Shown: positions 8,313-28,402 of the stretch, one piece after another
Layout: each line of letters begins with the position of its first letter
Position numbering within the stretch: position 1 is the stretch's first letter
NCBI GenBank assembly: GCA_040002535.1
Contig: JBDUEF010000002.1
Location: forward strand, 1 to 50,483
DNA from: Actinomycetota bacterium
GTDB taxonomy: Bacteria; Actinomycetota; UBA4738; HRBIN12
Reading direction: 5' to 3'
DNA: 50,483 nt
Translations under genes and position numbers: made by a program
Notes under the pieces: model-generated
The model's database searches: none
What the model was told of the DNA's origin: nothing
Seen by the model: only the letters and a program-made list of their open reading frames with translations

Positions 8313-9566
8313 TCACGCGGCCTTCACCACTCGCTCGAGCACGTACATCAGTTTGTCCTGGATGTCGCCGTCGCGGCCGTCGGTGAGGTTGGTCATCAGT
8401 CGCATCGCGAAATTCATCACCACCGGGCGGGGAAGGAGGTGCTTGGTCGCCATCCCCATGAGGGTCGGCTTGCCGATGATCCTGGCGAATCCCCGTCCGA
8501 TCGAGAAGTAGCGCCCGTAGCGCTCGCGCAACACCAGGGGGTAGCTCTGGGCGATGCCCGGACGGTGCAGGACCAGGGCGTCGTGGAGGAGCTCTGCCGC
8601 CAGCTCTCCGCACTCCATCGCGTAGGCGATACCCTCACCGTTGAAGGGGTTCACGGCGCCGACGGCATCGCCGACCAGCAGCATCCCCGGCACGGCCTGC
8701 GGGATCCGGTTCAAGCTCATGGGCAGCGGACCCGACAGCACACGCCCCTCGGCCGTCTCCTCCGAGATGCCCCACTCCGACGGCAGCATCGTGGCGAAGG
8801 CGTCGAACAGCCGTTGGGCGGAGATGTCCTTGAACCCCTTGAACGTGTTGAGCAGGCCCGCGCCCAGGTTGATCCGGCCGCCCGCGACCGGGAACAGCCA
8901 GCCGTAGCCCGGCAGCAGCAGATCCCCTTCCCACAGGTCGAGCCAGGACTCGAACCAGGGCCCCGGATGATAGGTGGCTCGGTAGTACCGGCGAGCGGCG
9001 ATGCCCAGGGGACGCGACTCGTCCCGACGGACGCCCGCGGGTCTGGCGAAGCGGCTCCCGGCGCCGTCGGCGGCGATCACGTACCTGGCGCGGACGACGG
9101 TGGGCTCGACCGCGCGCTCGCCGGCCGGGCGGATCGTCGCACCCGTCACCCACCCGTCGCGGAACGTGGGCTCAACCGCCTCGGTCTCCTCCAGGAGCCG
9201 GGCACCGGACTTCGTCGCCCGATCCACCAGGATCTGGTCGAAGTCGTGACGGGTGCGCACCAGGCCGTAGTTCGGCCAGCTCCGGAGCTCCGGCCAGGGG
9301 AGCTCGATCGTGGCGGAGCGCGAGTACACCCGCAGTCCCTTCACGCGCTCGAACCCGGGATCGCCGGGATCCACCCCCATGCGCAACAACGCGGCGACCC
9401 CTCGCGGTGTGATGCCGTCCCCGCAGACCTTCTCCCGCGGGAATCTGGCCTTGTCCACTACGGTGACGTCCACGCCGTGGCGGGCCAGGTGATAGGCGGC
9501 GGCGGCCCCCCCGGGGCCGGCGCCCACCACCAGGACGTCGGTCTCCACGGCGTGTGGCTTCGTCAC
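8313..9566 (-). CDS. geranylgeranyl reductase family flavoprotein (menaquinone side-chain reductase-like)
   Basis: 417 aa with a GTG start. FAD fold DVLVVGAGPGGAAAAYHLA, then KVCGDGITPRG and a C-terminal LLVGDAVGAVNPFNGEGI. The stop is only 7 nt upstream of the nuoA start. Confidence 0.88.
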   Translation of the reverse strand: MTKPHAVETDVLVVGAGPGGAAAAYHLARHGVDVTVVDKARFPREKVCGDGITPRGVAALLRMGVDPGDPGFERVKGLRVYSRSATIELPWPELRSWPNYGLVRTRHDFDQILVDRATKSGARLLEETEAVEPTFRDGWVTGATIRPAGERAVEPTVVRARYVIAADGAGSRFARPAGVRRDESRPLGIAARRYYRATYHPGPWFESWLDLWEGDLLLPGYGWLFPVAGGRINLGAGLLNTFKGFKDISAQRLFDAFATMLPSEWGISEETAEGRVLSGPLPMSLNRIPQAVPGMLLVGDAVGAVNPFNGEGIAYAMECGELAAELLHDALVLHRPGIAQSYPLVLRERYGRYFSIGRGFARIIGKPTLMGMATKHLLPRPVVMNFAMRLMTNLTDGRDGDIQDKLMYVLERVVKAA

Positions 9567-9588: not shown

Positions 9589-9606
9589 TTGTGAAAAGTT
9601 TCACAA
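9589..9606. promoter_or_regulatory. Rex operator, perfect palindrome TTGTGAA-AAGT-TTCACAA
   Basis: Read directly from the sequence. It matches the Rex operator consensus TTGTGAA-N4-TTCACAA and lies 23 nt upstream of the reductase GTG (9566), over the predicted transcription start. Confidence 0.85.
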
Positions 9607-9611
9607 GATCG

Positions 9612-9640
9612 AGCCTAGCGGCTCGTGAAACCTTTCACAA
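9612..9640 (-). promoter_or_regulatory. candidate sigma-70-type promoter of the reductase-nuo operon
   Basis: On the minus strand: -35 TTGTGA (9640-9635), a 17-nt spacer, then -10 TAGGCT (9617-9612). The two Rex operators bracket it. Assigned by eye only. Confidence 0.45.
9623..9640. promoter_or_regulatory. Rex operator, TCGTGAA-ACCT-TTCACAA (1 mismatch)
   Basis: Second operator, 34 bp centre-to-centre from the first. It overlaps the candidate -35 hexamer. Confidence 0.8.
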
Positions 9641-13468: not shown

Positions 13469-14146
13469 TCACGGTGTCGCCGAGGTTTCGGCTCCCGGCG
13501 AGGTCGAGGCTCCCGCGGATGCGCCGCCCGTGGCGACCGTGATCTGCCCCATCATCGTGCCGGGATGGACGTCGCAATGGTAGAAGTACGTGCCGGCGGC
13601 CAGCGGCTGGACGTTGTAGGTGTCCCTGGCCGGGCCGGTGATGAAGGCGCCGCTGAACAGCGGGGTCTGACCGGTCACCTCCGCCGGATCCTGCGTGAAG
13701 ATCGCGACGTTGTGCTGGATGCCCGTCTCCTGGTTATCGAACTCGAGGGCCACGGGCGTGTCGGCCGGGAAGGACAGGGTCGATTCATCGAAGCCCTCGG
13801 TGGAGGCCTTGGGCCCGGCGGCGAGCAACTCCGGCACGCCCTCGACGGCCTCCTTCTGCGGGCCGACGATGAGGAATGCCAATGCCCCCGTTACCAGTGC
13901 GACGCCGGCCACCACGCCCACCATCGAACCGATCGCGGGGGCCCCCACGCTCGGGCGCCGGGACACGAGGGTCGCCATCACCATGATGGCGATGGCGACG
14001 ACACACGCGGTCACGGTGGCCGCGTTGTGGGAGATCGCCAGCAGGATCCGCGAGAAGCCGAACAGGACGGCGCCGATCACGGCCAGGCCGCCGAGGGGGA
14101 TCAGGATCGGCAGCAGCAGGCTCTGCCGGTGTGAGGGTGAACTCAT
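13469..14146 (-). CDS. membrane-anchored cupredoxin (type-1 blue copper protein)
   Basis: 225 aa from MSSPSHRQS. ATGA overlap with the ctaG stop. Three N-terminal TM segments, then a plastocyanin/amicyanin-like domain with ligand pattern H (IQHNVAIF) ... YFYHCDVHPGTMMG. Confidence 0.85.
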   Translation of the reverse strand: MSSPSHRQSLLLPILIPLGGLAVIGAVLFGFSRILLAISHNAATVTACVVAIAIMVMATLVSRRPSVGAPAIGSMVGVVAGVALVTGALAFLIVGPQKEAVEGVPELLAAGPKASTEGFDESTLSFPADTPVALEFDNQETGIQHNVAIFTQDPAEVTGQTPLFSGAFITGPARDTYNVQPLAAGTYFYHCDVHPGTMMGQITVATGGASAGASTSPGAETSATP

Positions 14147-14982
14147 CGCGTCATCTCCGCTCTGATCTCCTTCTCGACGTCGGCGTACCGGAGCGCGTCC
14201 CAACCCTCTCTCCGTTCCCGGTCACCCCAGCGGAAGAAGACCGCCGACATCACACCCCACAGGATCAGCCCGCCGACGATCTTCATGATCAGGCCGGCGA
14301 TCAGCTGATCGGTGAGTGCGTCCATGCCCCAGATCCGGGGGAATCCCACGTACACGGGATACAGGGGACGGGTTCCGAAGGTGAGGAACGACGCGGGGAT
14401 CGTCGGCGCCAGCGACTGCAGGAACAGATACAACATCTGGCCGGGCGCCGGGAGCGCCGGCATCTCCGGCAGCGGCGAGACGATCGGCCACCACATCACC
14501 AGCGCCGACCCCACGATGAGGACGTGCAGGGCGAAGTGCGTGAGCTCGTCGGTCACCGCCGCATCGACCACGGCGGGCCAGTGCGTGAAGAACAGCACCG
14601 TGTTGAAGACCATCAAGGCCACCACCGGGCGGGTGAGGAAGCCCCAGATCACGCGGACGGCGCGGGGACGGAGCAGACGCCGCAGCAGCCAGGTCGGCAT
14701 GCCGACGATCAGGAGCGGGGCGGCCACCAGCGTGAAGAGGGTGTGCTGGACCATGTGGACGCTGAAGAGGTACCGCTCCGCGAGGTCGTGGACCGGCCAG
14801 TCCGCTCCGATCCACAGCACCCCCATGCCCAGCAGGAACAGGCGGACCCGGCGACGGGGGGTTGGCTCCTCGCCGGCTGCTGGCGCTCGATCGTGCCGGC
14901 GAACGGCGATCAGGTAGACGCCCACGACCGACCCCAGCAGGAGCCAGACGTCGGGGTGCGCATGCCAGGCAGGGAGATCCAT
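14143..14982 (-). CDS. ctaG: cytochrome c oxidase assembly factor CtaG (Bacillus-type, polytopic)
   Basis: 279 aa, multi-TM. The segments HMVQHTLFTLVAAPLLIVG and FFTHWP resemble the caa3 CtaG family. Confidence 0.85.
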   Translation of the reverse strand: MDLPAWHAHPDVWLLLGSVVGVYLIAVRRHDRAPAAGEEPTPRRRVRLFLLGMGVLWIGADWPVHDLAERYLFSVHMVQHTLFTLVAAPLLIVGMPTWLLRRLLRPRAVRVIWGFLTRPVVALMVFNTVLFFTHWPAVVDAAVTDELTHFALHVLIVGSALVMWWPIVSPLPEMPALPAPGQMLYLFLQSLAPTIPASFLTFGTRPLYPVYVGFPRIWGMDALTDQLIAGLIMKIVGGLILWGVMSAVFFRWGDRERREGWDALRYADVEKEIRAEMTR

Positions 14983-21610: not shown

Positions 21611-22333
21611 CTACAGGCCCGGGGCGTATCGGGCCAGGGGCGCGAACAACCGCGTGAACTGCCCGCTGAGCATGAGGATCCCGACCGCCACCAGAAGGAC
21701 GCCGGAGACCAGCGTGATGGGTGCGTAGTGGCGCTTGACCCAGCCGAACGCCCCCATGAAGCGGTGGATGCCGAGCCCCACCAGCAGGAACGGCACGCCG
21801 AGGCCGAGCGAGTAGCAGAGCAACAGCAGCATGCCGCGCCCCACGCCCCCCTGCGAGGCCAGGCCGAGGATGCCCCCCAGCACCGGCCCGATGCATGGCG
21901 TCCACCCCGCCGCGAACGCCATCCCCAGCGGCGCCGCCCACGTAGGGCCGGGCCTCACCTTCCCCAGGAAGGGTCGCCGCTCGGCGTACAGACCCGCGGA
22001 CCCGAGTCCCAGCGTGAACACCAGCAACACCACACCGAACGCCACCACCACCCCGCCGGCGATCCGCTGGCCGGTCACTCCCTGCACCTTCGGCACCAGC
22101 TCCGCGCTGAAGGCGCCCAGCAGCGTGAAGACCAACGCGAACCCGCCGATGAACAGCAGGATGGGGAGCAGTGGCCCCCGGTCGTCCTCGGCAGCGCGCT
22201 CCCCGGTCACGAACGAGATGTAGCCGGGGACCAACGGGAAGACGCACGGGCTGGCGAACGAGACGACCCCTGCCAGGAACGCGAGCGCCGGCGCCCACCA
22301 TGCGGTGAGATCGGATGCGACGGCCAGCGGCAT
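21611..22333 (-). CDS. ccdA: cytochrome c biogenesis thiol-reductant transporter CcdA (DsbD family)
   Basis: 240 aa. Conserved Cys in FASPCVFPLVPGY and GWTPCIGPVLG. Confidence 0.93.
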   Translation of the reverse strand: MPLAVASDLTAWWAPALAFLAGVVSFASPCVFPLVPGYISFVTGERAAEDDRGPLLPILLFIGGFALVFTLLGAFSAELVPKVQGVTGQRIAGGVVVAFGVVLLVFTLGLGSAGLYAERRPFLGKVRPGPTWAAPLGMAFAAGWTPCIGPVLGGILGLASQGGVGRGMLLLLCYSLGLGVPFLLVGLGIHRFMGAFGWVKRHYAPITLVSGVLLVAVGILMLSGQFTRLFAPLARYAPGL

Positions 22334-22452
22334 TCGGAGCGGGCTCCTCTCACGGGCTCGGCCCGGTCACCGGGCAGTCTACGGAGCGAGGGGTTTCGCG
22401 GCGCACGACACTGGGTTGCGAGAATGCTGCCCACCCCTCATGATGGGCTCGC

Positions 22453-22470
22453 TTGTGAACGGATTCACAA
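22453..22470. promoter_or_regulatory. Rex operator, perfect palindrome TTGTGAA-CGGA-TTCACAA
   Basis: Read directly from the sequence. It lies in the 211-bp divergent intergenic region between ccdA (start 22333) and the b6-type cluster (start 22545). Confidence 0.85.
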
Positions 22471-22516
22471 ACGGTCCGGCGCGCCGCGGGAGGGCTCCAC
22501 CGACCGATCGGCTGGC

Positions 22517-22522
22517 TATAAT
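22517..22522 (+). promoter_or_regulatory. candidate -10 box TATAAT upstream of the b6-type cluster
   Basis: An exact TATAAT, which stands out in this GC-rich context, 22 nt upstream of ATG 22545. No convincing -35 was found. Confidence 0.35.
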
Positions 22523-22544
22523 CCCGCCCGAACACCACGACCAC

Positions 22545-22946
22545 ATGGCACAACTCCAGGAACGACTCGCCGGCAGGATCGCTCCCGTCAAGGAGCGGGG
22601 CGAAGCCTTCCAGAAGCGCTTCGATTGGACCTGGACGAACGCGGTTCTCTTCTCCGTGGGCTTGATGTTCTTCCTCCTGATCACGGTGGCGGTGATCCCA
22701 TCCTTCTGGCTGTACTTCGCCGACCAGAAGCTGCTGTGGGACGGCGGTGCCCCGCATAAGATCCTTCCCTTCCTGCCCTGGACGCTCGACGGCTTCTGGC
22801 TGAAGGAGATCCGTGACGCCGTCGCCATGGGTCTGTCCACGGTTCCGCTCGTGGCGGTCCTTGTGGGGGCGGCGGCCATGCAGAACTGGCGCCGCAAGCT
22901 GCGTGGGGCCTCCAGCGACTCGCGGCCGACGGGCGGGTACCGCTGA
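22545..22946 (+). CDS. small membrane protein (2 predicted TM segments), first gene of the b6-type cluster
   Basis: 133 aa from MAQLQERLAG. The stop overlaps the ferredoxin ATG (TGATG). The longer track ORF from 22305 would read through the Rex operator and the TATAAT box. I recognise no family. Confidence 0.7.
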   Translation: MAQLQERLAGRIAPVKERGEAFQKRFDWTWTNAVLFSVGLMFFLLITVAVIPSFWLYFADQKLLWDGGAPHKILPFLPWTLDGFWLKEIRDAVAMGLSTVPLVAVLVGAAAMQNWRRKLRGASSDSRPTGGYR

Positions 22947-23341
22947 TGCCGTTCACGAAGACGGAGGTCGACATCCACACCGACTACGTCCTGGAGTCGG
23001 TGGACCCCGCGTGGCTCGCACAGGGAGTGAAGTCGCCGAAGCACCTGATGCTCGATCCCGACAACTGCATCCTGTGCCGGGCGTGCGAGGACGTGTGCCC
23101 ATGGAACTGCATCTACATGCTGTCCCCGGGGATCGCCGAGAGCGCCGAGTCCGAACCGGTGGAGGCCGAGGTGGCAAACGCGAACGCGATCTTCGTGGTG
23201 GACGACAACGCGTGCACCCGCTGTTCGGTGTGCGTGGACCGCTGCCCCACCGACACGCTGTACTATGCGCGACTGCCCGAGGGCGCGGGCGGCAAGCGGA
23301 AGATGGCAGAGGTCCCGGCGTCCCAGGCGGCTGAGGGATAG
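22946..23341 (+). CDS. 2x[4Fe-4S] ferredoxin (dicluster, NuoI-like spacing), no signal peptide
   Basis: 131 aa. Two CxxCxxCxxxCP motifs, CILCRACEDVCP and CTRCSVCVDRCP, separated by an acidic insert. Confidence 0.9.
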   Translation: MPFTKTEVDIHTDYVLESVDPAWLAQGVKSPKHLMLDPDNCILCRACEDVCPWNCIYMLSPGIAESAESEPVEAEVANANAIFVVDDNACTRCSVCVDRCPTDTLYYARLPEGAGGKRKMAEVPASQAAEG

Positions 23342-23376
23342 TCGCCGGGATGGGCTGGTAGAGAGGGGATGTTGGG

Positions 23377-24147
23377 TTGAAGCTGAAGCCGCCGTCACCC
23401 AGTGAGCTGGGTGACCGCATCCGCGAGACCGAGGTGTGGAAGTCCATCTTCCGGCCCGGTTCCGTCTTCCGCAAGGGCTACAAGGACACGTCGCGCGACC
23501 GAGCGCTCGCCACCATGAACAACGTCCTGTACCACCTGCACCCCGTGAAGATGAAGCGCCACGGGCTGAAGCTGACCTACACGTTCTGCCTGGGCGGCCT
23601 CTCGTTCTTCCTGTTCATCCTCCTCACGATCACCGGCATCTTCCTGATGTTCTTCTACCGGCAGATGGCGGAGCTGGGATCGGCCCAGGCCTTCACCGAC
23701 ATGCAGAACATCCGCACGTCGATCTTCTTCGGGGACCTGGTGCGCAACCTCCATCGCTGGGGTGCCCACCTGATGGTGTTCAGCGTGTCGCTGCACATGG
23801 CGCGCGTCTTCTACACCGGCGCGTACAAGCCCCCACGTGAGTTCAACTGGGTGGTCGGCGTGATCCTGCTGTTCCTCACCCTCGGCCTGTCGTTCACCGG
23901 GTACCTGCTCCCCTGGGACCAGCTGGCGATCTGGGCCGTCACGGTCGGCACCAGCCTCGCGGGCTACTCGCCGTTCATCGCCAAGCAGGCGAACTTCCTC
24001 CTGCTGGGCGGCGCGGTGGTGGGGCCCGAGACGCTGCTGCGCTGGTACGTGCTGCACGTGCTGGCGTTGCCGTTCGTGCTGGTGATCTTCCTTGCGGTCC
24101 ACTTCTGGCGGATCCGCAAGGACGGCGGCATCTCGGGACCACTGTAA
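23377..24147 (+). CDS. cytochrome b6-type protein (cytochrome b N-terminal four-helix domain)
   Basis: 256 aa. TTG start with GAGAGGGGA 8 nt upstream. His pairs in helices B (NLHRWGAHLMVFSVSLHMARVF) and D (LHVLALPFVLVIFLAVHFW). Also FCLGG, WVVGV and LPWDQ. Confidence 0.92.
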   Translation: MKLKPPSPSELGDRIRETEVWKSIFRPGSVFRKGYKDTSRDRALATMNNVLYHLHPVKMKRHGLKLTYTFCLGGLSFFLFILLTITGIFLMFFYRQMAELGSAQAFTDMQNIRTSIFFGDLVRNLHRWGAHLMVFSVSLHMARVFYTGAYKPPREFNWVVGVILLFLTLGLSFTGYLLPWDQLAIWAVTVGTSLAGYSPFIAKQANFLLLGGAVVGPETLLRWYVLHVLALPFVLVIFLAVHFWRIRKDGGISGPL

Positions 24148-24156
24148 GGAGACGAC

Positions 24157-24978
24157 GTGGCTGGACGCGAAGAGACACCGATGGACCAGGAGATCTTCGA
24201 TACGACGCTGCAGGCCGAGCTGGCCAAGGGCACGGATCGTCGCGTGGCGGAGGGGCGCGCCAAGTCGGCAGGCGTCCGCGCCTACCGGACCGCCCATCCC
24301 GATGAGGTCGCAGCAGCTCCCGCCGCCGCCGCGGGGGCGCCCGCAGCGGCCGGCGGTTCGCCCGCTCCCGGGCCGGCCGCGGCAGCTCCGGCCGCAGCCC
24401 CTGCCGTGGCGGCGGTGACGGCGGCGGCGGTCCGCACCGCGCCCGGTCCCACCGGCAACGTCCCCGAGCCCAAGCGCGGCGCGCCGGAGAAGCACCGCCT
24501 CCTCGCGTTGGTGCCACCCGAGGGCATCCAGCGCGTGGAACGGGAGCAGGGCGACCGCATCAACGTGTGGCCGCACCTGCTCATCGAGGAGATGGTGGCC
24601 ATGTTCCTCGTCCTGGCCGCCCTGGTCCTGTTCTCCACCTTCGTCAACGCACCCCTTCGCGAGCTGGCCAACCCCAACCTCACGCCGAACCCATCGAAGG
24701 CGCCCTGGTACTTCTTGGGACTGCAGGAGATGCTGCGCTACTTCCACCCCATGGTGGCCGGCATCACCATCCCCACCTTCATCCTGGTCGGGCTGGCGGC
24801 CATCCCCTACGTGGACCGCAACCCCAGCACGAAGCCCGGCGATCGCAAGATCGCCATCACCATGTTCACCATGCTGTTCATGTTCGGCGCCACGCTCACC
24901 ATCATCGGATCGTTCTTCCGCGGCCCCGGCTACAACTGGGTCTGGCCGTGGTCCCAGGGGGTGTTCTTCGAACTGTGA
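24157..24978 (+). CDS. cytochrome b C-terminal domain / subunit IV (PetD-like) with a long N-terminal extension
   Basis: 273 aa. GTG start with AAGGAG 5 nt upstream. Three TM segments. Qo-site motif position reads KAPWYFLGLQEMLRYF. Residues about 51-99 are an Ala/Pro-rich low-complexity stretch. Confidence 0.88.
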   Translation: MAGREETPMDQEIFDTTLQAELAKGTDRRVAEGRAKSAGVRAYRTAHPDEVAAAPAAAAGAPAAAGGSPAPGPAAAAPAAAPAVAAVTAAAVRTAPGPTGNVPEPKRGAPEKHRLLALVPPEGIQRVEREQGDRINVWPHLLIEEMVAMFLVLAALVLFSTFVNAPLRELANPNLTPNPSKAPWYFLGLQEMLRYFHPMVAGITIPTFILVGLAAIPYVDRNPSTKPGDRKIAITMFTMLFMFGATLTIIGSFFRGPGYNWVWPWSQGVFFEL

Positions 24979-25706
24979 CGCCGCTCGCGATCACCTCCAG
25001 CACCGTCGGCGCGATCGTCGCCATCGTGGTGGTGGACATGTTCGCCGTCGCGTTCGGGCTGTCGTTCCTTCGCGCCCGCCGGGGGCACCAGGCCACCCCG
25101 CCGATGCCAGGCGCCACACCGGTGCCGGCGACGGCAAAGGCCCCGAAGGCGTTGTCGCGCAGGGATTTCTTCCGCAGGTCGCTGCTGACCTCGCTGGCCG
25201 TGTTCGGCGCCGAGTTCGGCCTGGCCTCGCTCGCGATGCTGTGGCCAAACCTGAAGGGAGGCTTCGGCTCCGCCATCAACGCCGGCAACATCGCCGACAT
25301 CAAAGCCGAGATCGAGGACACGAAGGGCCCCGCGTACAACGGAGCCGGCCGCTTCTACGTCGTCCCGTACGCCGGGAAGGCCAGCGGTGACGTCGATTAC
25401 GCGCTGACCGGTGTGACGTCGGGCGGCATCATGCCCCTGTATCAGCGGTGCGTGCACCTGGGATGCCGGGTCCCCTTCTGCGGCTCCTCGAAGTGGTTCG
25501 AGTGCCCGTGCCACGGCTCGAAGTACAACCAGGCGGGCGAGTACCAGCTGGGTCCGGCCCCCCGTGGCATGGATCGATTCAAGATCACGGTGGACGGCGG
25601 CGGAAACGTCACCGTCGACACCTCCGCAGTGATCCTGGGACCCCCGCGAGGGACCGACACGATCAGCGAGCCGCCGCAGGGTCCCTTCTGCGTGGCGCCG
25701 GGCTGA
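24975..25706 (+). CDS. Rieske [2Fe-2S] iron-sulfur protein with Tat signal
   Basis: 243 aa. GTGA overlap with the preceding stop. Twin-arginine motif SRRDFFRRS. Cluster boxes CVHLGC and CPCHGS. Confidence 0.93.
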   Translation: MTPLAITSSTVGAIVAIVVVDMFAVAFGLSFLRARRGHQATPPMPGATPVPATAKAPKALSRRDFFRRSLLTSLAVFGAEFGLASLAMLWPNLKGGFGSAINAGNIADIKAEIEDTKGPAYNGAGRFYVVPYAGKASGDVDYALTGVTSGGIMPLYQRCVHLGCRVPFCGSSKWFECPCHGSKYNQAGEYQLGPAPRGMDRFKITVDGGGNVTVDTSAVILGPPRGTDTISEPPQGPFCVAPG

Positions 25707-25743
25707 CGCAGAGAGCGACGAGGGGAGGTCGGGGACACATATC

Positions 25744-26523
25744 ATGCTCGCACTGTCGAAGGCACTGAGCGTCGTCCTGCTGCTCTCCGGCGCGCTGCTC
25801 GTTGCCATCGCGCTCGCCGCGCTCTTCCTGCGCGGCCGGGCGAAGGAGCGCGGCCCGGACATCCCGGCCGGCATGCGCCCGGGCCCGGCCGACGCCTCTT
25901 TGGAGACACCGCTGCTGCACAAGCTGCAGGGCTGGAGCCTGGTGCTGGTGCTCTTCTTCGCGGTGTGGATCCCGTTCAGCTGGCTGCGCGAGCCCTCGGA
26001 GAACCTCAAGCAAGAGCAGGACCTGCAGACCGAGGCCATCTCCCGCGGGCAGCGCTCGGTGCAGCTGTTCAGCGAGGAGAACCAGGCCGGCGTCGGCTGC
26101 GTCCGGTGTCATGGCGCGGAGTTGCGTGGCAGCGTGATCCAGGCCGGCGTCGATGCCAACGGCGCGCCCGCCTTCGTGGCCACGCCGAACCTCACCACGG
26201 TGTGCGGGGGCCCCAGCACGAACCATCCGCTGATCAAGTCCCTGGACGACATCTACACCACGCTCGAGCAGGGGCGGGGCGTGATGCCGTCGTGGAGCAT
26301 CAAGTACAAGGGCGCCCTGGACGACCAGCAGATCGACGACATCGTCCAGTACCTCGTCTTCATGAGCTCGAAGAACGTGCCCTTCGAGCAGAACGTCTGC
26401 CTCAACCTGGACGCCGCCGACGCGGCCGCGAGCCCCAGCGCCGCCGCCTCCGGCGAGGCCTCTGCATCCCCGAGCGCCGCAGCCAGCGCCGCGGCGAGCT
26501 CGAGCTCGGAGGCGACCCCGTAG
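25744..26523 (+). CDS. membrane-anchored monohaem cytochrome c
   Basis: 259 aa. Two N-terminal TM segments, a single CVRCH haem site, a candidate Met ligand in GVMPSW, and an Ala/Ser-rich C-terminal tail. Confidence 0.88.
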   Translation: MLALSKALSVVLLLSGALLVAIALAALFLRGRAKERGPDIPAGMRPGPADASLETPLLHKLQGWSLVLVLFFAVWIPFSWLREPSENLKQEQDLQTEAISRGQRSVQLFSEENQAGVGCVRCHGAELRGSVIQAGVDANGAPAFVATPNLTTVCGGPSTNHPLIKSLDDIYTTLEQGRGVMPSWSIKYKGALDDQQIDDIVQYLVFMSSKNVPFEQNVCLNLDAADAAASPSAAASGEASASPSAAASAAASSSSEATP

Positions 26524-27255
26524 ATGCGGACCTGCCTGGGCTTCCACGTCGAGTGCGGCACCCTTCTGAAGGGCGCCGGCGTCACCGTCGTCGGCTTCAT
26601 GCTCTTCGTCGGCAGCGTGTTCATCCTGCTGTCGGCCGTGTTCGGGCGCTTGATGGGCTACCTGGTCGTGGCCGTCGCCTTCTTCGGCTGGATGACGCTG
26701 TTCTCAGCCATGTGGCTGTTCGGCTTCTACGCGCAGGGTCCGGTCACGAAGACGAACCTGGGTCCGCGCGGGCTCGAGCCCGCCTGGGTACCCCTGGAGG
26801 GCGGCCTGGAGGTCGCCGACGACACGTATCACACGTTCGCGGCCTATCCGGAGGCGCCCTGGGGTGCGCCGACGACGTCGCAGGAGCCGTCGGTGCTGTC
26901 GGTGACGAGCGTCGTGCAGACCTTCATGGCCGAACAGGCGAACGAGGAGCTGGGGGTGGACGAGACCGATCCCCAGGCGGTCCTCAACACGCAGTTCACG
27001 GTGGACAGCATCCGGTTCGCGCCGGAGAGCGAGGTGTCCCTGGCCGTGGTGACCGCCTACTTCAACGGCGGCGGTCCGCTCACCACCATCACGCTGTACC
27101 ACAACAGCGGCAGCGTCCAGCGGTACTCCCTGATGTTCCTGGGCGGGTCCCTGCTGCTGTTCGCCCTGCACCTGCCCCTGCTCGACCGAGCGGAGAAGAA
27201 GCGCAAGGCCTTCCTGACCGGCGGCAGCGCGCCGCCCTGGTACGGCCCGGCATGA
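26524..27255 (+). CDS. membrane protein of unknown function (2 N-terminal and 1 C-terminal TM segments around a domain of about 130 aa)
   Basis: 243 aa. The ATG immediately follows the cytochrome c TAG (TAGATG). G/C-rich third codon positions are consistent with coding. I recognise no family. Confidence 0.72.
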   Translation: MRTCLGFHVECGTLLKGAGVTVVGFMLFVGSVFILLSAVFGRLMGYLVVAVAFFGWMTLFSAMWLFGFYAQGPVTKTNLGPRGLEPAWVPLEGGLEVADDTYHTFAAYPEAPWGAPTTSQEPSVLSVTSVVQTFMAEQANEELGVDETDPQAVLNTQFTVDSIRFAPESEVSLAVVTAYFNGGGPLTTITLYHNSGSVQRYSLMFLGGSLLLFALHLPLLDRAEKKRKAFLTGGSAPPWYGPA

Positions 27256-27268
27256 GCGAGGAGACGAG

Positions 27269-27379
27269 ATGATCGGTGTCGAGGTCCCTCTGCTGGATCA
27301 GGGGAGCGTGCAGTTCATCCTGTTCGGCGTGATGATCGTGGCGATCTGCATCGTGATGTGGATCACCATCGCGAAGTGA
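27269..27379 (+). CDS. 36-aa single-TM peptide (not in the ORF track)
   Basis: ATG with GAGGAG 6-11 nt upstream. Sequence MIGVEVPLLDQGSVQFILFGVMIVAICIVMWITIAK. It sits 13 nt after the preceding stop, and its 3' end overlaps the convergent rex stop by 17 nt. Confidence 0.4.
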   Translation: MIGVEVPLLDQGSVQFILFGVMIVAICIVMWITIAK

Positions 27380-28094
27380 CGCCGGGCGAGCGGCCGGGGA
27401 TGTCGGCGACGGCCCGGCCCCGGCGCTTCACCTCGGCCAGCGTCGCCTTCCGCTGCTCGTAGAACGCCAGGATCTGCAGCTCGATCGCCAGGTCCACCTT
27501 ACGGACGGACACGCGGGCGGGCACGGTGATCACCGCCGGCGCGAAGTTCAGGATCGATCGGATGCCTGCCGCCACCATCAGATGGGCCACCTCCTGCGCG
27601 GCTTGCGCGGGGGTGGCGATCAGCCCGATCGCGATGTCCTCGGCCTTCACCAGCGCGGGCAGGTCGTCGATGTGGTGGATCGCCATGCCGCCGGCCACCT
27701 CCCCCTCTTTGCCGGCGTCGGCATCGACGAGGGCTGCCACGCGGAACCCCCGCTCGGCGAACCCCTCGTAGTTGGCCAGGGCGAGGCCGAGGTTGCCGAT
27801 CCCGGCGATCACGATCGCCCAGTGCTGGGTGAGGCCCAGCTCGCGCCGGATCTGGTGGACCAGATAGGCCACGTCGTAGCCCACGCCGCGGGTGCCGTAG
27901 GAGCCCAGATGCGACAGGTCCTTGCGGACCTTGGCTGAGTTGACGCCGGCGGCCTCGGCCAGCGCGTCGGAGGAGACCGTCGTCGTGCCCGCCTCGGCCA
28001 TCTCCACCAGCGCGCGCAGATAGATCGGCAGTCGCCCCACCGTGGCTTCGGGGATCGAGCGTTCGCGGGAGGTCGACCGCTTGGGCGGCTGCAT
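27363..28094 (-). CDS. rex: redox-sensing transcriptional repressor Rex
   Basis: 243 aa. N-terminal winged helix IPEATVGRLPIYLRAL, Rossmann motif VIAGIGNLGLALANY, and NFAP near the C-terminus. Confidence 0.95.
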   Translation of the reverse strand: MQPPKRSTSRERSIPEATVGRLPIYLRALVEMAEAGTTTVSSDALAEAAGVNSAKVRKDLSHLGSYGTRGVGYDVAYLVHQIRRELGLTQHWAIVIAGIGNLGLALANYEGFAERGFRVAALVDADAGKEGEVAGGMAIHHIDDLPALVKAEDIAIGLIATPAQAAQEVAHLMVAAGIRSILNFAPAVITVPARVSVRKVDLAIELQILAFYEQRKATLAEVKRRGRAVADIPGRSPGVTSRW

Positions 28095-28112: not shown

Positions 28113-28130
28113 TCGTGAAACGATTCGCAA
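28113..28130. promoter_or_regulatory. Rex operator-like site TCGTGAA-ACGA-TTCGCAA (2 mismatches), autoregulatory position
   Basis: Located 19-36 nt upstream of the rex ATG, immediately upstream of the candidate -10. Confidence 0.65.
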
Positions 28131-28150: not shown

Positions 28151-28402
28151 TCACGTGCGGGACCCCTGCGCCAGCCTGGCGAGCTCGGCCGGATCCACGT
28201 CCACCTCGAAGCGCTCCCGCCCGTCGACGGTCACCACGGGGATGCGGATGCCGTACTCGAGTTCGAGTCGCTCGTCGCCGGAGATGTCGACCTCGTCCAA
28301 CGCGAACGGGGTGCGGGCTCGCTGCGCCTCCAGCACCTCGCGCGCCCGATCGCACAACCCGCAACCGGGACGCGAGAACAGCACGACGACCACGGTCGGC
28401 AT
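28151..28402 (-). CDS. glutaredoxin-like small redox protein
   Basis: 83 aa. CGLC active site in VVLFSRPGCGLCDRA and a thioredoxin-fold ending IPVV.VDG. Confidence 0.85.
   Translation of the reverse strand: MPTVVVVLFSRPGCGLCDRAREVLEAQRARTPFALDEVDISGDERLELEYGIRIPVVTVDGRERFEVDVDPAELARLAQGSRT

Follow-up and report, generated by a model that had tools for sequence, protein, structure and literature searches.

What does a ferredoxin do among the genes of a respiratory Rieske/cytochrome b complex? This question is raised by a stretch of 50,483 nucleotides from an Actinomycetota bacterium (GenBank assembly GCA_040002535.1, contig JBDUEF010000002.1, positions 1 to 50,483), which we analysed in its full length and refer to as the window. 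Its positions 22453 to 27379 hold a cluster of eight genes, which encode, in this order, a membrane protein with two helices, a ferredoxin with two [4Fe-4S] clusters, cytochrome b6, subunit IV, a Rieske protein, a monohaem cytochrome c, a membrane protein with three helices and a peptide of 36 residues. These eight genes form one conserved operon, and the ferredoxin appears to be homologous to a domain of larger oxidoreductases that are themselves encoded beside cytochrome b and Rieske genes. Taken as a whole, the cluster is probably best explained as a menaquinol:cytochrome c oxidoreductase with a fixed ferredoxin wire on its cytoplasmic (N) side, through which we would rather expect electrons to flow outward than inward.

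The locus bears on two wider questions. The first, which goes back to a proposal for anammox bacteria, is whether a Rieske/cytochrome b complex can send a low-potential electron to a cytoplasmic acceptor and not to quinone; the second, which lies behind cyclic electron flow in the b6f complex, is whether a ferredoxin can exchange electrons with haem ci. Both have been hard to test in the systems in which they arose. Here, aerobic actinobacteria that abound in soil and freshwater have an operon that pairs a two-cluster ferredoxin with a b6 complex of the haem ci type, and since the carriers of this operon include Acidimicrobiia, a class with cultured members, it may offer a culturable test system. 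Should the ferredoxin prove to be a subunit, this system would be a simpler model than anammox bacteria, and complex III would have to be redrawn for a large part of the Actinomycetota.

A conserved unit of eight genes

The window had previously been annotated from its letters alone. This first-pass annotation had read the cluster as a single unit and had proposed that the ferredoxin provides the complex with a low-potential iron-sulfur entry or exit point on the N side. Its eight open reading frames, all on the plus strand, agree in position with the list of open reading frames of the window, and the tight junctions to which it had drawn attention are all seen in the sequence: the stop codon of the two-helix protein overlaps the start of the ferredoxin gene (TGATG, 22944-22948), the genes for subunit IV and the Rieske protein overlap in GTGA (24975-24978), and the stop and start codons of cytochrome c and the three-helix protein abut as TAG/ATG (26521-26526). 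The second of these overlaps, four nucleotides long, is retained in 51 of 56 orthologous loci.

The arrangement was compared across two sets of loci. A genome scan with one genome per species found a ferredoxin relative encoded in at least 395 species-level genomes, of which the best 80 were taken; a metagenome scan, seeded with distant ferredoxin relatives, yielded 80 further loci, in which the ferredoxin is 33-85% identical to that of the window. Only loci whose contig reaches far enough enter the synteny counts given below. The best 80 genomes are all metagenome-assembled genomes (MAGs) of uncultured Actinomycetota, labelled by NCBI as Actinomycetota or Actinomycetes bacterium and in one case as Solirubrobacterales. 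The layout that recurs in them comprises divergent ResB-CcdA genes, followed by those for the two-helix protein, the ferredoxin, cytochrome b6, subunit IV, the Rieske protein, cytochrome c, the three-helix protein and the 36-residue peptide, and finally a convergent Rex gene.

Most telling is the pairing of the ferredoxin with cytochrome b6. Across both sets, 146 of the 160 loci have enough contig, and in 146/146 of these the b6 gene lies directly 3' of the ferredoxin gene (77/77 genome and 69/69 metagenome loci), at ferredoxin identities to the window of 33-92%. Subunit IV (60/60 genome and 46/46 metagenome loci), the Rieske protein (58/58 and 39/39), cytochrome c (56/56 and 36/37) and the three-helix protein (55/55 and 28/34) likewise occupy their expected positions, and the two-helix protein is found upstream of the ferredoxin in 78/78 genome loci and, as far as detectable by tblastn, in 39/71 metagenome loci. 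Furthermore, the eight-gene order occurs on two long contigs from Acidimicrobiia, where it adjoins a MenJ-like gene and nuo genes; the ferredoxins of this class form a subfamily of 2117 proteins, about 40% identical to that of the window. The eight genes are therefore a conserved unit across genomes, metagenomes and Acidimicrobiia, as the first-pass annotation had supposed. Such a census of gene neighbourhoods had been suggested there with the prospect that the ferredoxin and flanking membrane genes might lack conserved synteny with the b6 and Rieske genes; the synteny clearly holds, which favours the proposed link between ferredoxin and complex. All members of the cluster that we looked up in public records are proteins from MAGs or metagenomes with generic names.

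We also came across a second copy of the 414-bp ferredoxin gene in the Acidimicrobiia MAG GCA_027494165.1, alone on another contig (8001-8414 in locus L081, against 8001-8414 in L082). The two copies share 99.8% identity, which stops at the gene borders; the flanks are unrelated, and the extra copy is followed by a DUF427-like open reading frame. It is either a true gene-sized duplication or an assembly artefact.

Could the ferredoxin, then, be something other than a stable subunit? It might be a co-transcribed soluble factor for maturation or repair, for instance in haem ci attachment or in the handling of the Rieske protein or of haem, or else a general ferredoxin that is expressed from a Rex-controlled promoter. 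An isolated second copy in one MAG would be in line with such a role, as would the public annotation as a generic 4Fe-4S protein. However, a place directly before b6 that is kept in 146/146 loci over deep divergence would be unusual for a general ferredoxin, and we consider this explanation improbable, also in view of the relatives described in the next section.

Cytochrome b6, the ferredoxin and its oxidoreductase-linked relatives

Profile searches of the eight products, another check suggested by the first-pass annotation, assign five of them to families of Pfam and NCBIfam and leave the three membrane proteins without one. Cytochrome b6 (256 amino acids, 23377..24147, plus strand; Pfam Cytochrome_B PF00033, E-value 1.4e-41) has the two conserved histidine pairs expected for haems bL and bH (LHRW...SLHM and VLHV...AVHF), each spaced by 14 residues. 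Across 75 orthologues, 79% of its positions, including H53, H55 and C71, are at least 90% conserved. Cys71 lies in the motif FCLGG, which is at least 98% conserved in these orthologues, and is the predicted attachment site of haem ci; the motif occurs as FCLGG or LCLGG, Acidimicrobiia included. The C terminus (WRIRKDGGISGPL) is conserved as well and resembles that of b6f complexes. By contrast, the solved b6 structures, of which the chloroplast and cyanobacterial ones are nearest (E-value 5e-44), align to the protein only from residue 68, which leaves a strongly conserved N-side extension of 67 residues (VWKSIFRPGS...YHLHP). The best NCBIfam match, Geobacter ExtP, falls just short of its cutoff (283 against 290 bits) and aligns only from residue 47.

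Subunit IV (273 amino acids, 24157..24978, plus strand; Pfam Cytochrom_B_C PF00032, E-value 4.7e-9), for which Geobacter ExtQ is the best NCBIfam match (E-value 2.4e-15), also carries an N-side extension, in this case of about 135 residues and with an Ala/Pro-rich linker. Its three helices are accompanied by the Qo motif APWY, which is part of the sequence KAPWYFLGLQE, invariant in 52 orthologues. Within 24157-24560, a conserved N-terminal segment precedes the linker, which is of low complexity, variable in sequence and different in length among orthologues.

On these sequence grounds, the complex is a split-b (b6-type) Rieske/cytochrome b complex, and its cytochrome b6 and subunit IV probably belong to the APWY clade. 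This placement rests on the Qo motif, on the ExtP and ExtQ matches, and on N-terminal motifs shared with planctomycete-like and Nitrospinota cytochromes b. The clade is defined by the APWY motif and is described as having no characterised member (Kao and Hunte, 2014; PMC4122944). It comprises delta-proteobacterial, Chloroflexi, Nitrospirales and planctomycete sequences as well as a few from deep actinobacterial branches, namely Rubrobacter, Conexibacter, Patulibacter and Ilumatobacter (PMC4122944), and it probably corresponds to subfamily G of Dibrova et al. (2013, 2017). The first-pass annotation had seen no known layout in the cluster. This is right insofar as neither the QcrCAB nor the Bacillus qcrABC layout is matched; the type of cytochrome b, however, had already been catalogued with the APWY clade.

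The ferredoxin (131 amino acids, 22946..23341, plus strand; Pfam Fer4, E-value 4.8e-13, and Fer4_7) has a distinctive signature, in which the motifs CxxCxxCxxxCP[W/Y]xC and CxxCxxCxxxCP are separated by a spacer of 37-40 residues, 38 in the window. The eight cluster cysteines and a ninth, Cys55, are all invariant. There are 1038 close relatives, the best 120 of which are at least 80% identical, and public annotation calls the family a generic 4Fe-4S protein or mislabels it as 'PreA' or 'NuoI-like'. A signal sequence or twin-arginine translocation (Tat) motif, which the first-pass annotation had not seen, is indeed lacking; for this reason, and because relatives carry a homologous domain joined to an NAD(P)-binding protein, we place the ferredoxin on the N side.

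These relatives emerged from a search of 1.84 billion representative proteins. While stand-alone proteins of 115-140 amino acids rank first, the next matches include proteins of 550-690 amino acids that align via their C-terminal 80 residues. According to Pfam, these are GltD-like NAD(P)H oxidoreductases (Fer4_20 and Pyr_redox_2) with a C-terminal dicluster domain; one of them, P0215, matches residues 31-110 with 38% identity and an E-value of 2.8e-10. They have in common with the ferredoxin the extra cysteine of CP[W/Y]xC, the spacer of 37-40 residues and a block of the type (I/V)D(E/D)xxC(T/I)RC...RCPT. Polyferredoxins also score well, with spacers of mostly 17-30 and sometimes many more residues and without the CP[W/Y]xC signature. 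All six GltD-ferredoxin genes that we looked up (6/6) directly adjoin cytochrome b and Rieske genes, in two loci of Actinomycetota type, two planctomycete-like loci with multihaem cytochromes, one Nitrospinota MAG and one unassigned contig. Judged by its signature and gene context, on which the argument partly rests because polyferredoxins score equally well or better, the ferredoxin and the dicluster domain at the C terminus of the GltD-like oxidoreductases encoded beside cytochrome b and Rieske genes are homologous. The ferredoxin can accordingly be described as part of a flavoprotein-less variant of the anammox-type architecture.

The cytochromes b of these clusters point in the same direction. 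In five of the six, cytochrome b has the N-terminal extension seen in the window (W[K/R]SIFR[P/H]G) together with an HxHP-type motif, and KAPWY is readable in the four unsplit ones; the haem ci cysteine is absent from the four of the six in which the motif can be read. Two of the loci, L085 (11394-12698) from an NCBI MAG labelled Actinomycetota and the unlabelled L087 (11456-13480), have an identical gene order. Their cytochrome b is unsplit and lacks the haem ci cysteine, and both clusters end in a large cupredoxin/SoxE-like protein, which hints at a copper protein as electron acceptor.

The possibility that the ferredoxin is a misplaced NuoI, PsaC or HybA-type subunit was considered and rejected: it reaches 39 bits in NuoI-family models with a cutoff of 113, and its spacer of 38 residues compares with about 26-28 in NuoI and PsaC. 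The best 25 of its 74 NCBIfam matches include no Ext family, and its best matches in the PDB are polyferredoxin-like FwdF, MvhB and NuoI-type chains. We know of no APWY-type or anammox-type complex whose structure has been solved.

The first-pass annotation had named the anammox complexes as the only precedent, and they prove to be true relatives, both through the dicluster domain and through the N-terminal extension of b6. Those of Kuenenia are reportedly covered by Kartal et al. in 2013. Both Kuste4569-4574 and Kustd1480-1485 encode an NAD(P) oxidoreductase together with the Rieske/cytochrome b proteins (Hauser et al., 2025; PMC12954380), and the GltD-like architecture has been noted more widely for subfamily G (Dibrova et al., PMC5600118). 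In AlphaFold3 models of the Kuenenia complexes, the two cytochrome b monomers hold an additional haem b between them on the N side; its ligand is His43 or His62, and it lies close to Arg247 or Arg266 of cytochrome b and to Arg511 (Kuste4570) or Arg550 (Kustd1483) of the oxidoreductase (PMC12954380). In a planctomycete b6, 204 residues lie between the first histidine of HLHP and the arginine of WRIRKDG, a spacing that equals those of His43/Arg247 and His62/Arg266 by the published residue numbers. The counterparts in the b6 of the window are His53 and Arg247, both conserved, and we infer that they are equivalent to the Kuenenia haem residues.

These relationships bear on the idea of a soluble maturation factor or general ferredoxin, as they tie the protein to the complex in three further ways. 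The homologous domain is the C-terminal part of the anammox-type GltD-like oxidoreductases, whose residues close to the C terminus sit at the modelled N-side haem; the subunits of anammox complexes co-migrate experimentally (PMC12954380; PMC5600118); and the co-occurring N-terminal extension of b6 is common only to relatives linked to iron-sulfur proteins.

The Rieske [2Fe-2S] protein (243 amino acids, 24975..25706, plus strand; PF00355, E-value 3.8e-9) has the cluster boxes CVHLGC and CPCHGSKY, the latter in 56/56 orthologues. The first-pass annotation had rightly seen its twin-arginine motif (SRRDFF, residues 61-66), but had missed an additional hydrophobic helix ahead of it (residues 14-32). 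This order of helix and Tat motif recalls the combined Sec and Tat insertion that is described for actinobacterial Rieske proteins. Since CPCHGSKY keeps the serine and the tyrosine, a high-potential centre is predicted, although the quinone is presumably menaquinone. These residues act as hydrogen-bond donors, and their removal lowers the potential by about 130 and 65 mV, respectively (reviewed in PMC12954380). Cytochrome c (259 amino acids, 25744..26523, plus strand; Pfam Cytochrome_CBB3 and Cytochrom_C) had been annotated as a membrane-anchored monohaem protein, and its single CxxCH motif at residue 119 agrees with this; its hydrophobic segments, however, are two and not one. It ends in an Ala/Ser-rich tail (26380-26523), whose length varies among orthologues.

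The three membrane proteins without a family match were characterised by hydropathy and synteny. The two-helix protein (133 amino acids, 22545..22946, plus strand; no match in Pfam or NCBIfam) has hydrophobic segments at residues 33-51 and 89-107; both of its termini are basic, and the sequence RPTGGYR forms a conserved tail at its C-terminal end. A syntenic protein of 154 amino acids in Acidimicrobiia is its remote homologue (hhalign E-value 3.2e-5, probability 73%). According to a hydropathy scan, the three-helix protein (243 amino acids, 26524..27255, plus strand) begins with two helices, continues with about 130 residues outside the membrane and has its third helix at the C terminus; its counterparts in the Acidimicrobiia loci are 26% identical (E-values 1e-7 to 1e-9). 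The peptide of 36 amino acids (27269..27379, plus strand), which had been listed as a mere possibility, is a real gene: tblastn recovers it in 55 related loci with a median identity of 72%, and in Acidimicrobiia an open reading frame of 71-77 amino acids, likewise with a single helix, takes its position. It is probably a small subunit.

Predicted Rex control, respiratory setting and possible directions of electron flow

The cluster is preceded by the perfect Rex operator that the first-pass annotation had reported. The 18-mer TTGTGAACGGATTCACAA (22453..22470) matches the consensus at every position and lies 75 nucleotides 5' of the first start codon, in the region from which ccdA and the cluster diverge. 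The window thus holds both a TTGTGAA-N4-TTCACAA operator and a rex gene (27363..28094, minus strand; NCBIfam Rex equivalog NF003992, 342 bits against a cutoff of 226), which overlaps the 36-residue open reading frame on the plus strand tail to tail by 17 nucleotides (27363-27379). It has four Rex-like boxes with at most three mismatches, where 0.11 would be expected by chance. In 61 of 77 related loci, a Rex-like box with at most two mismatches lies 47-129 nucleotides 5' of the first gene; these boxes are nearly all of the 63 of this kind in the 77 loci. The rex gene is found in the same position in 54 related loci. Judging by these operators, the cluster is predicted to belong to the Rex regulon.

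Another Rex-like box, with two mismatches (28113..28130), lies 19 nucleotides 5' of the rex start codon (28094) and suggests autoregulation. A TATAAT hexamer (22517..22522, plus strand), read from the sequence 23 nucleotides 5' of the first ATG, gives a lead to a possible -10 element; a scan of 22250-27600 found neither a full two-hexamer promoter nor a credible terminator. Rfam and tRNA scans of the whole window returned no matches.

The neighbouring genes are those of an aerobic respiratory chain. Upstream of the cluster, the minus strand encodes CcdA, ResB, CcsB, oxidase subunits II (CtaC) and I (CtaD), CtaG and a ResA-like thiol-disulfide oxidoreductase, with a plus-strand gene for haem O synthase (CtaB) among them. 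As subunit II bears a C-terminal cytochrome c domain, the oxidase is of the caa3 type. Between the ResA-like gene and ctaG lies an open reading frame for 244 amino acids (13469-14203, minus strand), with a coding-like GC content at third codon positions and no NCBIfam match. Farther upstream are genes for a polyprenyl synthase and a MenJ-like geranylgeranyl reductase (8313-9566, minus strand), preceded by two Rex boxes and followed further downstream on the same strand by those for NuoC/D and NuoF. The two boxes (9589-9606 and 9623-9640), one perfect and one with a single mismatch, stand in tandem in the 77-nucleotide gap 5' of the MenJ-like gene; because of this position before the MenJ-like and nuo genes, complex I and the b6 cluster both appear to be under the control of Rex. 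Downstream of the cluster, rex and its Rex-like box are followed by genes for an extracytoplasmic function sigma factor and its anti-sigma factor. Just upstream of rex, a protein of 83 amino acids (28151-28402, minus strand) with a CGLC motif has the look of a glutaredoxin or thioredoxin and no NCBIfam match.

Menaquinone use is suggested by the phylum and by the MenJ-like gene, and the simplest reading of the cluster is that of a quinol:cytochrome c oxidoreductase of an aerobic, menaquinone-using actinobacterium. Such a complex would pass electrons via its own membrane-anchored cytochrome c to the adjoining caa3 oxidase. The ferredoxin would be its fixed subunit on the N side, attached to a docking platform that may consist of the N-terminal extension of b6, the long N-terminal extension of subunit IV and the two-helix protein. 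Its two [4Fe-4S] clusters could then act as a wire between the N-side haems, that is bH, ci and possibly an extra haem between the monomers on His53, as modelled for anammox complexes, and a putative soluble redox partner in the cytoplasm. In other words, the module would be the membrane-proximal half of an anammox-type iron-sulfur chain, minus the NAD(P)/FAD flavoprotein.

As to direction, we tentatively prefer an outward flow, which we regard as quite possible if short of probable. With the high-potential Rieske centre and, in the end, O2 pulling on quinol oxidation at the Qo site, the second electron would be forced into the low-potential b haems, from which it would pass via the ferredoxin clusters to a low-potential acceptor in the cytoplasm. 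This preference stems from the combination of a high-potential-type Rieske protein with menaquinone, the one that has been used to argue for b haems of very low potential in anammox complexes (PMC12954380), and from the strong pull that the reduction of O2 through the caa3 oxidase would exert. Since haem ci is retained, an ordinary Q cycle would proceed in parallel, and a build-up of NADH would make Rex turn on the operon and nuo together. In its most far-reaching form, the complex would be an O2-driven, quinol-bifurcating ferredoxin reductase in aerobic actinobacteria. We hold this version to be rather doubtful, but if it were true, low-potential reducing power would be made directly from the respiratory chain, by a minimal and tractable form of a mechanism that has been proposed, and never demonstrated, for anammox complexes; the complex would likewise lend itself to testing whether ferredoxin and haem ci exchange electrons.

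The same parts could also conduct in the opposite direction. Reduced cytoplasmic ferredoxin, supplied for instance by 2-oxoacid:ferredoxin oxidoreductases, would then feed the two clusters and through them haem ci and the Qi site, such that the complex has a second function as ferredoxin:menaquinone reductase. It would be a permanently wired counterpart of the route from ferredoxin to b6f that has been proposed for cyclic electron flow. This would make sense of the haem ci cysteine, which is kept in the ferredoxin-only form and absent from the four readable GltD-linked cytochromes b, and of the b6f-like C terminus of b6 given above; haem ci has long been proposed as an acceptor of ferredoxin electrons in b6f (PMC5600118), and an induction by Rex at high NADH would suit a need to drain reducing power. 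On the other hand, an uncoupled drop from about -400 mV to the menaquinone pool would waste energy, an objection that has been raised for NAD(P)H in anammox complexes (PMC12954380). Moreover, an inward flow does not need the high-potential-type Rieske motif, and the cluster encodes no enzyme that produces reduced ferredoxin. We therefore consider it somewhat unlikely.

Finally, the ferredoxin could be bound to the complex and yet take no part in catalysis, as a structural element or as a sensor of O2 or redox state that adjusts how active or stable the complex is. Sensing of O2 and redox state is a common role of [4Fe-4S] clusters, no partner domain is encoded in the cluster, and the organism, with its caa3 oxidase and haem O synthase, is aerobic. 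Yet the invariance of all eight cluster cysteines and of Cys55 speaks against such a role, as does the fact that the same module is the proposed electron wire in the flavoprotein-containing relatives, and we judge it very improbable. Like the view that the ferredoxin is not a subunit at all, it loses likelihood through the unbroken synteny across deep divergence.

Several observations weigh against a catalytic ferredoxin wire with outward flow. The retention of haem ci and of a b6f-like Qi region makes it likely that ordinary quinone reduction persists, so that a second outlet is less necessary, and searches of the cluster proteins and scanned neighbours with Pfam and NCBIfam found neither an NAD(P)/FAD module nor any other evident acceptor. 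Similarity among dicluster ferredoxin domains is promiscuous, and polyferredoxins reach their scores through several repeats. One Acidimicrobiia MAG, as mentioned, has a ferredoxin copy with no b6 gene nearby. Comparisons of the two-helix protein with the small open reading frames that precede the GltD-ferredoxin genes of L085 and L087 gave hhalign probabilities of 3-26%, which do not establish homology. AlphaFold2 models of the ferredoxin were unusable, with predicted local distance difference test scores of 33 for an alignment of 20 sequences and 45 for one of 49 sequences from two subfamilies.

Comparison with known complexes

The general idea of a cytoplasmic iron-sulfur oxidoreductase on a cytochrome b of the APWY clade is not new, but has been published since 2011-2013. 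What distinguishes the ferredoxin-only variant are its three extra membrane proteins, its predicted control by Rex, its aerobic setting and its wide spread in the Actinomycetota. Full-text literature searches and the surveys consulted yielded no stand-alone ferredoxin in an actinobacterial b6 cluster, with the reservation that one may already be depicted in Dibrova et al. (2013) or in the supplementary operon figure of the 2017 paper.

Compared with the b6f complexes of chloroplasts and cyanobacteria, the window shares the core of b6 from residue 68, the motifs of the haem ci pocket and the long-standing idea of electron transfer from ferredoxin to haem ci. In b6f, however, ferredoxin or ferredoxin-NADP reductase binds transiently, and the ferredoxin is neither a fixed subunit nor a product of the genes of the complex. 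The accessory proteins of the window have no relation to cytochrome f and the small Pet subunits.

Actinobacterial QcrCAB, the bc1 part of the CIII2CIV2 supercomplex, is found in the same phylum, feeds an aa3-type oxidase without a soluble cytochrome c and has a Rieske protein whose Tat motif is internal and preceded by additional helices. The window differs from QcrCAB, in which QcrB is unsplit, QcrC is a dihaem protein, and haem ci and a ferredoxin are both lacking. Accordingly, the window proteins score far below the cutoffs of the NCBIfam models for QcrB (110 against 500 bits) and QcrA (30 against 275 bits). The b6c complexes of Firmicutes, Bacillus QcrABC and Heliobacterium PetCBDA, are similar in that they oxidise menaquinol, have a split cytochrome b and haem ci, and use a membrane-bound cytochrome c in place of cytochrome f. 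Yet their Qo motif is PDWY or PEWY, their Rieske protein is of low potential, and they have no ferredoxin gene and no N-terminal extension of b6; the Bacillus operon opens with the Rieske gene and encodes subunit IV and cytochrome c as one fused protein, whereas b6, subunit IV, the Rieske protein and a separate cytochrome c follow each other in the window. A QcrCAB identity is excluded by the split cytochrome b, the monohaem cytochrome c and the model scores, a Bacillus-type identity by the gene order and the separate cytochrome c gene.

With the APWY clade, the window has in common the eponymous Qo motif and a split cytochrome b with a CxGG motif, although the usual form of the latter is WCMGG and not FCLGG. 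The published descriptions of the clade, in the portions available to us, cover cytochrome b only and mention neither a stand-alone ferredoxin nor the three membrane proteins.

A further comparison is with the anammox-type complexes, whose relatives occur widely beside cytochrome b and Rieske genes. They, too, have a split b6 with subunit IV, and their Rieske motif is likewise of the high-potential type, in a menaquinone context; their b6 has an N-terminal extension with a His/Arg spacing compatible with the modelled extra haem, and their N-side 2x[4Fe-4S] domain is homologous to the ferredoxin. In contrast to them, the window has no Fer4_20/FAD/NAD(P) domain, the ferredoxin being a separate protein of 131 amino acids. 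Where anammox complexes have a hexa- or octahaem cytochrome c and a partner resembling hydroxylamine oxidoreductase, the cytochrome c of the window is monohaem and has no such partner; where they have a subunit IV with five helices, that of the window has three. In turn, the window adds the two-helix, three-helix and 36-residue membrane proteins and embeds them in an aerobic chain with a caa3 oxidase. Its complex would work in the manner of the NAD(P)-linked complexes of anammox type without belonging to that group in full.

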